DNA of 64,000 nt, from assembly GCA_963796455.1 (NCBI GenBank), contig CAWCLO010000004.1:1024001-1088000 (forward strand). Reading direction: 5' to 3'. This DNA comes from Candidatus Sulfomarinibacteraceae bacterium (GTDB lineage: Bacteria > Acidobacteriota > Thermoanaerobaculia > Thermoanaerobaculales > Sulfomarinibacteraceae). The notes under the pieces were generated by a model that ran no database searches, was not told the DNA's origin, and worked only from the letters and a program-made list of their open reading frames with translations. A program made the position numbers and the translations under genes. Positions 22,999 to 60,036 of this stretch are shown one piece after another. Numbering within the stretch: the stretch's first letter is position 1; the number at the start of each line of letters is the position of its first letter.

Positions 22999-23876
<878 letters not shown>

Positions 23877-29754: not shown

Positions 29755-30706
29755 AAACCACGGAGACACAGAGCTTGCCCACATGTCCGATGCGGACGAT
29801 CCGTGTTCCGGAGAAACCGCAGATCACGCAGATAGACGCAGATCCATCGCAAACGGTCTCGTCGCAAACACGAAGACACAAAGGCACCAAGTCATCACAA
29901 AGCCGGTCAATCGTAAAGACCCACAGACCACCAGAAGGACACAGGAGCCATCGCGCACACGCGACGCAGATAGACGCAGATGGCAGACTGATTACGGAGA
30001 CATCAGCCACCGCCGCAAACAATCCACGTCCACCTCCCGAGTTCTTAACGCAGAGACGCAGAGTCGCGGAGACGCAGAGGACTTCCCGGAAGAACCCTCC
30101 ACTCGGCGAGATCCCGGCCGCCAGGGGCGGCCAGGAATCGCTGGGTCAGGAAATCGCCCCAAAAACCAGCTTTCGTCGCGATTTCCTGACCCAGCGGCCT
30201 GCGCGACCGCGCAGGTCTCGCCTCCTTCCTCCCCTTTCCTTCAATCAAGAGAGGGTGTCTCCGAAGCAAGGCAGAACCGGCATGCCGGAGGCGTGCCGGA
30301 CGGTGGGAAGCGGGGTGACTCCGAGCGCTGGCGATTGGAGTCGCCCCTCTTCTCACCGGCGACGGGCGATCGGAGATCGTCTGTCGATCTGCCGACACTG
30401 ATGGCACCACCGCACAAGCTCGCTAACCAGGCCTTTGCGTCTCTGCGACTTTGCGTTCTTTGCGGTTCAACCATGTGCACGCGAGACGCGTGCACCACCA
30501 TGGTGGTGCAGCCGTCCCGGCTGCACTCCGGTCGTGCCTTTGCGATGGCTTCTGTGTTCTTCTGTGTGTTCTGTGGGCCATTGTGGTTGCGACGAGACCG
30601 TTTGCGATGAATCTGCGTCTATTTGCGTGATCTGCGGGCGTTTTCTCTCTGTGTCTCTGTGCCTCTGTGGTTTTCCTGGTGTCAGTCCTTGGTGTCTTGG
30701 TGGTTG
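29755..30706 (+). mobile_element. Family A structured non-coding element, copy 2
   Basis: ~51-bp inverted repeat (~29817-29867 vs ~30587-30637, 2 mismatches) plus outer CACAGAG/CTCTGTG arms; same core as copy 1; lies between convergent genes. Confidence 0.8.
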
Positions 30707-32483: not shown

Positions 32484-32520
32484 CGCATTCGGACAAAACG
32501 CAGCGGCCCGGAGCCGGCCA

Positions 32521-33413
32521 TCTCGTCGCAACCACCACGTCACCAAGGACGGACACCAGGAAAACCACAGGGGCACAGAGACACAGAGAGAGAACGCCCG
32601 CAGATCACGCAGATAGACGCAGATGACAGCCTGATTGCGGAGACATCAGCCACCGCTGCAAACAAACCACCTCCGCCTCCCGAGTTCTTAACGCAGAGAC
32701 GCAAAGGCGCTAAGGCGCAGAGGACTTCCCGGCGCCATCCCCGGTCCGGCGAGATCCTGGCCGCCCAGGGCGGCCAGAAACCGCTGGGTCAGGAAACCGC
32801 TCCGAAAACCAGCTCTCGTCTCGGTTTCCTGACCCAGCGGCCTGCGCAGTCGCGCAGGTCTCGCCTTCTTCCTCTCCCTTTCTTCAATTGAGGATGGGTG
32901 CCCCCCGAAGCAAGGCAGAACCGGCATGCCGTAGGCGTGCCGGACGGTGGGAAGCGGGGTGACTCCGAGCGCTGGCGATTGGAGTCTCCCCTCTTCTCAC
33001 CGGCGACGGGCGATCGGAGATCGTCTGGCGATCTGCCGACACTGATGGCGCCCTCGCACAAGTTCGCCAACCAGGCCTTGGCGTCTCTGCGACTTTGCGT
33101 TCTTTGCGTTCTTTGCGGTTCAACCATGTGCACGCGAGACGCGTGCACCACCATGGTGGTGCAGCCGTCCCGGCTGCACTTCGGTCGTGCCTTTGCGATG
33201 GCTTCTGTGTTTTTCTGTGTGCTCTGTGGTCCTTTACGCCAGCCCTCTTCGTTCCCTCTCTGTGTCTCCGTGCCTCCGTGGTTTTCCTGGTGTGACCCCT
33301 TAGTGCCTTTGTGTCTTCGTGTTTGCGGCGAGTTCGTGTGCGATGGATCTGCGTCCATCTGCGTGATCTGCGGGCGTTCTCTCTCTCTGTGTCTCTGTGC
33401 CTCCGTGGTTTTC
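32521..33413 (+). mobile_element. Family A structured non-coding element, copy 3
   Basis: ~65-bp inverted repeat (32560-32624 vs 33347-33413); same core; lies between the convergent Rieske and phhA genes. Confidence 0.8.
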
Positions 33414-33423
33414 GGCCTCGGAA

Positions 33424-34227: not shown

Positions 34228-34246
34228 ACGCCACTCCAATTCAATT

Positions 34247-34280
34247 GCAGGATACAAGATGCAGGATACAAGATGCGGGA
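34247..34280 (+). repeat. Heptamer array GATGCAG/GATACAA abutting the family B cassette
   Basis: gcaggatacaagatgcaggatacaagatgcggga. Confidence 0.7.
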
Positions 34281-34289
34281 TTACTCTTT

Positions 34290-35095
34290 TCCAAGAGTGT
34301 GTCTCGGACAGCGTTCAGGGACAGCGACCGCAATCAGTGTTCAGCGGCAGCGTTCAGTCATCAGCGATCAGCTGCAGGGACTGCGAACAGCGCTCACTTT
34401 GTCGGGTTCAACATCCGCCAAGTCATGGCACGGACCTGATCGAAGCCCTTCATCGCCTGACTGGCATCAATCCGGCTGATCGCCCCGGCGTGAGCGAGGA
34501 GTTCCAAGTGGCTGTCGACCTCTTTCGCCGAGGCGTAGGCGATTCTCCAGTGATTCAACCGGTCTCTACCGAATCGGCCGTGCCCTTCTGCCAGGTTCGC
34601 AGGGACCGAACTTGGCGACCGGATTACCTGATCGGCTATGGATTTCAGCGGAGCTGGAACCCTCATCACGAGCTTGATCGCGATTCCTGCTGCTTCGAGG
34701 GCTTTCGAGTGGGCAATGAGGTTGGTGGTCGTGGCGGCTTTGGACATGGTCACCTCCGGGTCGTTCATGCCCAGACCCACAAGCCGGTGTGGCGGTCGAT
34801 GTCAAGGATGCCCTGCACCCTGCCTGTCCTTGACATCGGCCGCCCACCGGCTACCCCTTCCTTTGAACGACCCGGAGGCGGCCACTTCGTCGCCTGTACT
34901 CCTGACCGCTGGCCGCTGTTCCCTGACGCTGTTCCCTGACGCTGTTGCCTGTCGCTGTTCTCTGTCGCTGTCCCTGGACGCTGTCCCTGCCGCTGTCCCT
35001 GGACGCTGTCCCTGCCGCTGTCCCTGGACGCTGTCCCTGAACGCTGTCCCTGCAGCTGTTCGCTGCCCCCTGGATGAACCCCACGACCTGGACTG
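34290..35095. mobile_element. Family B cassette: inverted CAGGGACAGCG arrays enclosing a four-helix-bundle gene
   Basis: Left arm 34305-34392 (CAGGGACAGCG-like units); right arm ~34905-35075 (12-13 nt CGCTGTCCCTG units); TCCARG motif outside each arm. Confidence 0.75.
34394..34747 (-). CDS. Four helix bundle protein (TIGR02436 / 23S rRNA IVP / Avd-like fold)
   Basis: 117 aa; DQVIRSPSSVPANLAEGHGR and IAYASAKE match the family pattern Q..R...S...N.AEG..R; strong RBS GGAGGTG before ATG 34747. Confidence 0.88.
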   Translation of the reverse strand: MSKAATTTNLIAHSKALEAAGIAIKLVMRVPAPLKSIADQVIRSPSSVPANLAEGHGRFGRDRLNHWRIAYASAKEVDSHLELLAHAGAISRIDASQAMKGFDQVRAMTWRMLNPTK

Positions 35096-47115: not shown

Positions 47116-47166
47116 CCGGACGATGCATCAAAGGGCCGGAGTGCCCAAGAAACCGAACCATTCCTG

Positions 47167-47376
47167 TCCAGGACATTGCCTCGTCCGGCGTTCAGGGACA
47201 GCGATCAGCGGCAGGGGCGGTGAACAGCCGCCGGATCATCGCACGAACCTGGTCAAAGAGGTTCATTGCGTCACGGCACCTGACAGTTGGCGCTGAACAC
47301 TGACAACTGTTCCCGGTCGCTGACAGCTGTCGCTGATCGCTGTTACCTGTCGCTGTCGCTGGACACTGTCCCTGCA
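47167..47376. mobile_element. Family B cassette, internally deleted copy
   Basis: tccagga...cgttcagggacagcgatcagcggcagg at left; cgctgtcgctggacactgtccctg at right. Confidence 0.75.
47221..47280 (-). pseudogene. 3' fragment of a four-helix-bundle gene
   Basis: Translates as DAMNLFDQVRAMIRRLF, versus QAMKGFDQVRAMTWRML at the C-terminus of 34394-34747. Confidence 0.75.
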
Positions 47377-50435: not shown

Positions 50436-50749
50436 GAAAGGGAGAAAGGGCGCAGGGGAGAAAGGGGGAACGCACCACACGATGCTCGATACTCGATGCT
50501 GGATGCTGGACGCTCAATCCCGAGACCGTTGCCATTACGGTTAACGAAAGGGGGAAAGGGAGAACCGTACCGGAGACGTCATTCGTGATAAGGGCCGCGT
50601 CTCCTCTGCCCCTCTGCTCCTCTGCTCCTCTGCTCCTCTGCTCCTCTGCTCCTCTGCTCCTCTGCTCCTCTGCTCCTCTGCCCCTCTGCCCCTCTGCCCC
50701 TCTGCCCCTCTTGCCCCTCTGCCCCTCTGCCTCCTCTGCCCCTCTGCTC
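50436..50749. repeat. Family C repeat mosaic, copy 1
   Basis: GGGAGAAA units, GATGCTC/GATGCTG heptamers, TCGTGATAAGG anchor at 50583, then a long CTCCTCTG/CCCCTCTG octamer array (~50600-50749). Confidence 0.9.
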
Positions 50750-53000: not shown

Positions 53001-53563
53001 CACTCGATACTCGATACTCGATGCTGGATGCTGGATACCGGACCCACGATCCCCTTCCCCACCAACGTCGGAACGGGAGAAAGGGTACAGGGGAGAAAAG
53101 GAGAACGAGCCTCCACATGGCGGAGGGACTGAGTACCCATCGCTATCGGAATCGCTATCGATGGGAAACGGTTGGATTATTCTCCTTGACGCGCTCGCGG
53201 TTCCAATGCTTTCCCGGAAAGTAGAACCAACCAGGACGGACATTTCCAGCATGCGAACAGCGCCTCCCGATGTCATCCTGAGCGAAGCCCCTACAGGGGC
53301 GAAGTCGAAGGATCTATGAGATGAACGGAACAACCCCAGTCCGCAGATCCTTCGACTACGCGCCGAAGGCGCTCCGCTCAGGATGACATATTGAACGACA
53401 GTTCCGATACCGTTACCGAACGGGGGAATAGGGAAAACGCACCGGTGACGACGTTCGTGATAAGGAGAGGGTCTCCCTTTCTCCCTTTCTCCCTTTCTCC
53501 CTTCTCCCTTTCTCCCCTCCTTCTCCCTTTCTCCCTTTCTCCCTTTCTCCCTTTCTCCTCTGC
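53001..53563. repeat. Family C repeat mosaic, copy 2, with GTCATCCTGAGC palindrome (53271-53388)
   Basis: CTCGATA/CTGGATG heptamers, GGGAGAAA units, CGCTAT hexamers, palindrome, TCGTGATAAGG at 53455, CCCTTTCT array. Confidence 0.9.
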
Positions 53564-55041: not shown

Positions 55042-55590
55042 CACTCGATACTCGAGGGATGCTGGATGCTGGAACCAAACGTCGAACCCTTCCGATCCCG
55101 ATCCCGTTCCCGAAAGGGAGAAAGGGGGAAAGGGAGAAAGGGAGAAACGGAGAACCGCACCCCACAGCGCAGAGGAGCAGAGGGGCGGAGGGGCAGAGGG
55201 GAAACCACCCGGCACTGATCTGCCCTGCATGGGAATGTCGCCTCCCGATGTCATCCTGAGCGGAGCCCGCAGGGCGTAGTCGAAGGATCTATGAGACGGA
55301 CCGAAGCCCCCTTGTGCCGCAGATCCTTCGACTTCGCGCTCGAAGCGCTCCGCTCAGGATGACATCTTGAACGATCGTTCCGGTCCCGATCCCGCTCCCG
55401 ATCCCGTATGGGGCTGACCGTACCCCCGGGGTTGAGGGAGCGTTCGCTATCGCTATCGCTATCGAACGGCTGCTATGGATACCGACCTCGTAAGAGAGAC
55501 AGGGCCTCACCGGTTCCGTAGATCGTGATAAGGGCAGAGTCTCCTCTGCTCCTCTGCTCCTCTGCTCCTCTGCTCCTCTGCTCCTCTGCT
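55042..55590. repeat. Family C repeat mosaic, copy 3, with GTCATCCTGAGC palindrome (55249-55364)
   Basis: Module order similar to copy 2; TCGTGATAAGG at 55523, then a CTCCTCTG array. Confidence 0.9.
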
Positions 55591-59637: not shown

Positions 59638-59656
59638 GATAGAAGCCCGAACTCCG

Positions 59657-59986
59657 GAGGCAGCGACAGTGTCCAGCGGCAGCGGCAGAGAGCAGCGACA
59701 GGGGACAGTGATCAGTGTTCAGGGGCAGAGACCGGGGGCTGCAATCAGGTGCAGTGCCGGCGTGGTCACCTCAGGGGCGTTCAACAGAAGATACAGCCGC
59801 AGTGCTGTAGGCGTCTCGCCTGCACACCGTGCGGCCGAGACGGCCGCACCACAAAGACCGGAGCCCCGAGCAACTGAGTGCCGTTCACTGTCCCGGCCGC
59901 TGATCGCTGACGCTGGTGACTGAACGCTGCCGCTGCCGCTGGACACTGTCGCTGTCCCTGTACGTTATCGAAACTCTGTCTTGGAC
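59657..59986. mobile_element. Family B cassette, gene-less copy with REP-like hairpins inside
   Basis: cagcgacagtgtccagcggcagcggcag (left) pairs with ctgccgctgccgctggacactgtcgctg (right); internal palindromes tgtaggcgtctcgcctgca and gtgcggccgagacggccgcac. Confidence 0.75.
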
Positions 59987-59995
59987 TAGCGGTAA

Positions 59996-60036
59996 CCAGT
60001 ATCGAGCATCCAGCATCCAGTATCGAGTATCGAGCG
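59996..60036 (+). repeat. Heptamer array AGCATCC/AGTATCG
   Basis: ccagtatcgagcatccagcatccagtatcgagtatcgagc. Confidence 0.8.

Follow-up and report, generated by a model that had tools for sequence, protein, structure and literature searches.

The window considered here, a 64,000-nucleotide stretch from the genome of a Candidatus Sulfomarinibacteraceae bacterium (G000, the source genome, with an assembly 90.5% complete; the other G numbers denote genomes of relatives), carries between its neighbours, phhA and the gene of an ECF sigma factor, an intact gene for a 117-aa four-helix-bundle protein that is embedded in a series of repeats and is read from the minus strand. The features of this segment, together with two sister copies situated elsewhere in the window, are as follows.

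34246..34281, plus strand: heptamer target array (GATGCAG/GATACAA), the last 9 bases of which are ATGCGGGAT
34282..34313, plus strand: IS4-type terminal repeat of the IRL type with conserved subterminal bases; the same end occurs on intact IS4 elements
34314..34393, plus strand: downstream arm, a mosaic array of CAGNG units, complementary to the upstream arm
34394..34747, minus strand: intact four-helix-bundle gene (TIGR02436/PF05635, 117 aa), with an alternative in-frame ATG at 34768
34745..34886, minus strand: conserved leader, consisting of an outer stem and an inner covarying hairpin with TGTCAAGG/CCTTGACA
34830..34857, plus strand: TTGACA, a 16-base spacer and TACCCC, a possible outward promoter antisense to the gene, of conserved geometry
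34887..35075, minus strand: upstream arm, a CAGNG array in which a 12-13-mer run is locally expanded; beyond it the IS4 right end is missing
47159..47375, plus strand: internally deleted sister copy with a degenerate IRL-type end (9/32 mismatches) and the upstream arm, without a right end
59646..59994, plus strand: gene-free sister copy with a REP doublet in place of the hairpin and the gene

An earlier note on this DNA had seen the gene flanked by two arrays, of the CAGNG type at 34307-34390 and of inverted 12-13-mers at 34914-35052, which was confirmed, and had taken the arrays for the boundaries of the element, a role that belongs instead to IS ends. The true end lies 8 bases outside the TCCAAGA with which the note had begun it; it starts at 34282 with TACT, a mutated CACT, and its IRL-type terminal repeat departs from the consensus CACTCTTGTCCAAGAC at 3 of 16 positions. 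The ‘TTAC’ that had been singled out as a separate motif is made up of the AT of the target array and the mutated start of this terminal repeat. The same outer end had been proposed at four places and is indeed found at 34282, 47159 and near 59993 (5, 9 and 11 mismatches in 32, respectively), whereas the fourth, at ~35094, has 17 mismatches in 32 and is background, ordinary stretches of the window scoring 13-21 mismatches with a mode of 18. That heptamer arrays adjoin the element ends also proved correct, the degenerate IRL-type end near 59993, for instance, abutting the array at 59996-60035; at the window copy, ATGCGGGAT is likely to be the surviving half of a target duplication.

When set against the family consensus, the window copy aligns to positions 121-851 at 89%, with the first 120 bases, i.e. 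the IS4 right end, absent; it is one of 9 intact copies in the source genome that have a left-type end only, and it is likely immobile because one of its ends is missing. Its upstream flank begins GGTTCATCCAG and thereby resembles an ISL3 end, a resemblance that was left as probable chance; the source genome has only 4 weak ISL3-end matches, and this flank matches nowhere else in it. On the other side, phhA now starts directly downstream of the cassette in the same orientation, and the motif ACTATGCCACG, which lies upstream of phhA in all 19 congeners examined and is possibly its promoter, is absent at 34230-34281. The window is rich in other repeats as well. A REP-type doublet occupies 33128-33181, and the GTGG-tagged family to which it belongs also forms the core of gene-free cassettes; a palindromic repeat pair, GTCATCCTGAGCG...GAAGGATCT, occurs in two copies within octamer arrays (53270-53390 and 55248-55365) and is found inside some gene-free cassettes too. 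Big composite intergenic arrays of 8-10-base units (CTTTGCGT, TCTCTGTG, GATCTGCGT), nested and inverted, extend over 32500-33420, 23003-23806 and 30048-30669, and the long ORFs tested from these three regions gave no NCBIfam match.

How widespread is this arrangement in the source genome? A profile search returned 73 TIGR02436 matches, and tblastn returned 98 hits belonging to the clade of the window gene, with 58 intact 117-aa ORFs (81-91% identical in protein sequence to the window copy) and 7 that are full-length but broken; about 230 loci (231, amounting to 107 kb or about 2% of the genome) match the 852-bp element consensus. The mobile multi-copy cassette postulated by the earlier note is thus borne out, and its expansion is genome-specific, the 58 copies forming a single clade (support 0.94; FastTree, rooted on G040). 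The complete unit of ~850 bp begins CACTGCTGTCCAAAAC, ends GTCTTGGACAAGAGTG, is flanked by a 9-bp duplication, and contains a single TIGR02436 ORF and no transposase. At least five CAGNG-type units lie upstream of the gene in 57 of the 58 intact copies and, inverted, downstream of it in 55, with direct downstream arrays in none, and only 0.9% of random windows reach five units. IS ends are found on both sides of 33 of the 58 copies; in 3 the two ends are both of the left type, and in 22 at least one end is incomplete or absent. Among 35 two-ended copies, a permissively defined set in which at least two left ends are spurious, the 9-bp target duplication is perfect in 8 and has at most one mismatch in 13 (0.74 and 2.5, respectively, are expected when flanks are swapped between loci), and none of the other lengths from 3 to 13 bp gives such a signal. 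Under more stringent pairing, the two-ended elements number 89 (31 full, 12 partial and 46 gene-free) and 108 ends stay unpaired. Two further peculiarities may be recorded here. Four of 55 short two-ended elements (C1:367921, C1:999780, C3:97862 and C10:438034) have one deletion junction in common, which joins consensus positions 280 and 536 where leader and gene have a short stretch of homology; and the copies at C10:352981-353797 and C1:390883 have their inner module flipped with respect to the IS ends, an arrangement to which recombination between the inverted arms would lead.

The element ends show a pronounced preference for their surroundings: 127 of 286 adjoin 7-periodic DNA, compared with 0.4% of random sites, which identifies the heptamer arrays as insertion targets rather than parts of the element. 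Orthologous sites tell of insertion too. The interval between phhA and the sigma factor gene measures 1020 bp in the source genome and 123-339 bp, without the gene, in all 17 syntenic congeners (19 congener loci were examined, of which one is rearranged and one reaches a contig end), so that the filled and empty states anticipated by the earlier note do both exist. An exact single-copy empty site, checked against G006, was not recovered because the congeners, and with them the flanks, are too diverged; four DNA runs gave fragmented contigs at the locus with no join across the element and are uninformative on strain polymorphism. The gene itself is present in 17 of 24 congeners, with 1-48 matches each. 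Could the copies nonetheless be old inherited loci, homogenised by gene conversion and serving the host in transcript processing or termination, rather than recent insertions? Recombination is certainly strong, with all four gametes seen in 822 of 2211 site pairs, and of the 55 loci that are syntenic with the source genome, among 107 loci of relatives with long flanks, 13 carry the gene there as well. At the other 42, however, the gene is absent from the source genome; the 12 distinct shared sites have the same orientation in 5 cases and the opposite in 7, a mixture that separate insertions into hot spots rich in repeats would give; and the target duplications, specific to each locus, persist. 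Common inheritance was for these reasons already disfavoured and is, in our estimation, very improbable.

What, then, would have moved a cassette that encodes no transposase? The congener G017 harbors an intact IS4-family element of 1411 bp whose transposase (P0002), composed of DUF4372 and DDE_Tnp_1 (PF14294 + PF01609), scores above the cut-off of NF033592 and contains the Y(2)R(3)E(6)K motif, YKDRWQIELFFKALK. Its right end is identical to the upstream end of the cassette over 18 of 18 bases, with a similarity that continues past the repeat (p=0.0005), and the left end of the element corresponds to the downstream end of the cassette; judged by eye, the CA ends and 8-10-bp repeats of the IS4Sa-like subgroup in PMC2266710 Table 1 fit this element. 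Metagenomic relatives of it (80 fetched, 70 examined) include 52 intact elements with both ends readable, and these have the same two ends; a 9-bp duplication is perfect in 7 and no other length gives any, a test that is weak when taken alone, 44 of the 52 being without a matching duplication. The three closest of these relatives (81-88%) and the G017 element itself sit in heptamer arrays, which places the target bias with the transposase lineage. Both autonomous IS4 and autonomous ISL3 elements are seen in such arrays (L033:1355-2765, L064, L079 and L080; L261, L262 and L265), which apparently reflects a convergence of two unrelated transposase families in their choice of target.

In G006, both IS4 ends are present on every one of the 30 copies, and 16 have perfect 9-bp duplications. 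Neither this genome nor the source genome, the two that are full of IS4-ended copies, yielded a cognate transposase, the latter having been searched, within its 90.5% completeness, with PF14706, NF033590, NF033592 and the ISL3 profile NF033550 and, by tblastn, with the G017 transposase; across the 24 congeners, the cognate IS4 transposase occurs in one. The single DDE element that PF01609 detects in the source genome is unrelated and has different ends. An identity of the ends with those of IS50/Tn5 was likewise rejected, the search of that genome with PF14706, among others, being empty. The shared ends make it likely that the cassette was moved in trans by an IS4-family transposase with matching ends, which might have come from an IS4 like that of G017, now lost from the source genome or unassembled in it.

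The gene is not needed in cis for this kind of movement. The earlier note had recognised full, deleted and empty versions of the element in the window, and the first two stand, the deleted copy at 47159..47375 keeping a remnant of the 3′ end of the gene at 47223-47274. The copy near 59985 is not empty, for it carries a REP doublet where the hairpin and the gene would be. This gene-free form numbers 76 copies in the source genome, 66 of which have both junctions in common, and perfect duplications flank 9 of its 28 two-ended copies (0.9 expected), which shows that the gene is dispensable in cis for transposition of the IS4 type. The idea that the gene-bearing form is the autonomous partner of the others has to be given up accordingly: the ends and the 9-bp duplications are those of an IS4-family DDE element, and the gene-free form spreads as well. 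REP sequences of the same type flank a Y1 transposase gene at C1:952748, an association that we take to be of the REPIN/RAYT kind. The leader was considered as a RAYT substrate and dismissed, the leader stem being seen at none of six Y1 loci. At C4:1144044 and C4:1147021, 3 kb from each other, are two further Y1-transposase genes that are near-identical and have inverted repeats at their borders, with AT-rich DNA between them.

If the gene is dispensable in cis for jumping, what does its product do? The ORF (34747-34394, minus strand; 124 aa if the ATG at 34768 were used) matches TIGR02436 at 54.3 bits, with a cut-off of 24, and also PF05635, and the predicted structure of the 117-aa protein consists of four helices (pLDDT 92.6) with no catalytic domain. 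Comparison of this model with the PDB returned Xcc0516 (2GSC) and BT_0352 (2RLD) as the nearest solved relatives, with a TM of about 0.8, and Avd (4DWL, 8UB7) as more distant ones (TM 0.77-0.79 at 8-9% identity; 0.77 and 9% for 4DWL), so that the assignment of the fold to the Avd type in the earlier note agrees with the model. To our knowledge, TIGR02436, a large family with several solved structures, has been assigned no function outside DGRs. The likeness to Xcc0516 and Avd raises the tentative possibility, to which we give well under even chances, that the protein is a nucleic-acid-binding oligomer acting on its own leader.

The leader itself is unusually constant and structured. Over its 142 bases, variability is 0.05, compared with 0.26 at fourfold sites, and in 22 sequences from 11 genomes two-sided changes affect 12 of 46 pairs, more than in any of 500 shuffles and more than in any of the slid controls. 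The outer stem covers the GGAGGT ribosome-binding site and the start codon and is likely to damp translation. The inner hairpin varies almost exclusively by two-sided changes, with a single G-U cell, and this near absence of G-U pairs suggests that it may function at the DNA level or be maintained through conversion between the arms. On the antisense strand, the TTGACA-16/18-TAY geometry recurs in nearly every genome examined and may represent an outward promoter or simply the hairpin; the segment contains no consensus promoter or terminator, TTGACA-16-TACCCC not being scored as a promoter. Rfam gave only hairpin matches far below threshold, and a retron-like or other known RNA was set aside.

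These properties bring to mind a retro-element in which the Avd-like protein would serve as chaperone to the transcript of its own element, with a reverse transcriptase supplied in trans, after the manner of DGRs, and the earlier note had indeed contemplated an RNA-based system. The match of the fold to Avd is compatible with this, as is the fact that the transcript would fold back strongly, the whole segment folding far better than its shuffles (z -9.6). PF00078, however, finds no reverse transcriptase in the source genome or in G003, G004, G010 and G018, which hold 6-36 copies each; the insertions are accounted for by DDE-type ends and duplications; and the two-sided changes of the inner stem suit RNA no better than they suit a palindrome in DNA or conversion between the arms. 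We consider such a route highly improbable.

Purifying selection acts on the ORF of the cassette. Over the 58 copies, which are mosaics and comprise intact copies found by protein search, dN/dS averages 0.16, and in ten relatives with enough copies pN/pS ranges from 0.12 to 0.37. Changes private to one copy number 67 non-synonymous to 40 synonymous, and those that are shared 45 to 100 (p=9e-7), corresponding to a dN/dS of about 0.55-0.7, i.e. closer to neutral, and of 0.15-0.2, respectively. Perhaps individual copies decay nearly neutrally once inserted, while a source pool, mixed by recombination, would stay under selection. Such selection is not explained if the gene is a plain passenger, and in this respect it counts against the explanation preferred here.

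A rival reading is that the module of hairpin, gene and arrays is mobile in its own right, its protein binding fold-back DNA or RNA and favouring the copying of its locus into repeat arrays through host recombination, with the IS ends as secondary amplifiers. The selection seen in all ten relatives tested, the contrast between shared and private substitutions and the heavy mosaicism all speak in its favour, and so do observations on the company that such genes keep. Besides the clade of the window gene, the source genome has four unrelated TIGR02436 genes (C4:1278079, C1:983116, C9:2705 and C10:733016), each of them between inverted simple-repeat arrays, with units of 6-8 bases (GCAGAGGA, GGCTATGA/ATAGCCCC, AGGAATT and CGCTAT), and no IS ends were seen at any of the four. 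The genome-wide tie between four-helix-bundle genes and arrays on which the earlier note had staked its case is therefore real, all five clades lying between inverted arrays, and protein clade goes together with repeat-unit type, each clade having its own unit, as far as five clades can tell. The same or similar units, gene-free, also appear in the window at 50603, 55541, 55444 and 4235.

The relatives add to this picture. In several of them the module rides on ends of another kind: at least one ISL3-type end, GG(C/T)TCATCCGG, is found on 7/7 copies in G008, 8/8 in G014, 7/7 in G017, 5/7 in G016 and 4/7 in G020, and 8 of 13 two-ended copies are flanked by 8-bp duplications with at most one mismatch. 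An intact ISL3 with those ends sits inside an AACGTTN array in G017, and the copies of G014 and of G017 each form a single clade (FastTree, rooted on G040). Neither end type was found on 18/20 copies in G004, 5/6 in G003, 4/6 in G018, 2/2 in G013 and 19/19 in G040. Modules that are end-less and multi-copy, as in G004 (where 14 form one clade) and in G040, would be expected if the module were independently mobile. Within the genus, however, the end-less copies are the most diverged (pS 0.53-0.65 versus 0.10-0.37), as eroded old IS-ended copies would be, and erosion is the simpler reading; 25 of the 58 copies in the source genome have already lost a complete IRR plus IRL pair, and G003, G004 and G018 retain a few ISL3-type ends. 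Moreover, no shared boundary or duplication has been seen for the end-less copies, and the protein lacks a catalytic domain. On balance, independent mobility appears rather improbable. In G040, which belongs to a sister family, the module lies in direct hexamer arrays, and an upstream boundary, CTGGTATAG, is common to 6 of 29 copies (L145, L146, L150, L154, L160 and L165); a third end type was considered there and rejected, the motif being confined to those 6 copies, upstream, without an inverted partner.

We therefore think it quite probable, by a comfortable measure, that the segment in the window is a one-ended copy of a transposase-less cassette of ~850 bp, in which IS4 ends enclose a hairpin-gene module and which likely spread in trans. 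The module would be older than its vehicle and, since it lives among simple-repeat arrays of the sort that these IS4 and ISL3 lineages target, would have been captured at least twice. Is there perhaps more to the module than a passenger? A bolder proposition holds that TIGR02436 genes, with their hairpin and inverted arms, constitute an undescribed class of selfish elements that has no recombinase of its own and whose protein biases the copying of its own fold-back locus. We deem this unlikely; if true, it would account for the selection acting on 58 redundant copies, for repeat arms that differ from clade to clade, for the repeated capture by IS4 and ISL3 ends and for the origin of rRNA intervening sequences. 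Under the preferred reading the vehicle is ordinary, and the puzzle lies in a passenger that is kept under purifying selection in 58 copies and possibly spreads without IS ends. In this family the unit is defined and its ends are known, there is a candidate for the transposase and a preferred target, and gene-free derivatives occur naturally, which makes it testable whether the IS enzyme moves the cassette and whether the protein favours its own locus.

A search of the literature, with subscription journals and supplements outside its scope, gave no description of such a cassette: the terms ‘four helix’ and ‘S23’ do not occur in the accessible part of PMC4679880, which deals with TAACTGA heptamer arrays, and the accessible parts of PMC5524665, PMC3936711, PMC10969869 and PMC6542083 do not describe it. 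Several known systems are nevertheless related to it in one respect or another. With Avd of DGRs the cassette protein shares the four-helix fold, as far as the consulted portion of PMC10053308 and the structures 4DWL and 8UB7 go, but it is only 8-9% identical to Avd, its genome is without a reverse transcriptase match and its neighbours are phhA and an ECF sigma factor; the cassette is not a DGR. Nor is it an rRNA intervening sequence. The ORF-bearing intervening sequences in the 23S rRNA of Coxiella and Leptospira (S23p/PF05635), according to the part of PMC4990558 that was available, have in common with it the protein family, complementary fold-back termini and apparently poor translation initiation, and an old, unproven idea mentioned there sees them as remnants of transposition or once-mobile elements. 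The cassette copies, by contrast, are intergenic and have IS ends and duplications, and none lies in the one rRNA operon found, the nearest being separated from the rRNA markers of C10 by ~7 kb and ~20 kb. The gene-free derivative is a MITE of ~450 bp with a REP doublet as its core, and, unlike REPIN/RAYT repeats, this doublet rides inside IS4 ends.

The closest parallel is offered by mobile insertion cassettes (MICs), which, in the portion of PMC6199540 consulted, comprise two IS inverted repeats and a passenger coding sequence without a transposase in 0.7-3 kb, as exemplified by MIC231 of the IS231 subgroup of IS4. The present element is a MIC variant with an unusual cargo. It shares with MIC231 the IS4-family inverted repeats, the absence of a transposase, a coding sequence, a size within 0.7-3 kb and a cognate IS that could act in trans, here in the congener G017. 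Two IS ends characterize the family (33 of 58 intact copies), the window copy being an exception in that its right end is missing, and the target duplication is 9 bp in the cassettes and in intact relatives of the cognate IS alike. IS231 itself has CAT ends and 10-12 bp duplications (PMC2266710 Table 1), whereas the cassette has the CACT ends and the 9-bp duplications of an IS4 of the DUF4372 type; and, in further contrast to MIC231, the cassette carries a single fixed cargo in dozens of copies per genome, is targeted to heptamer arrays, and has a cargo that rides on ISL3 ends in sister species.
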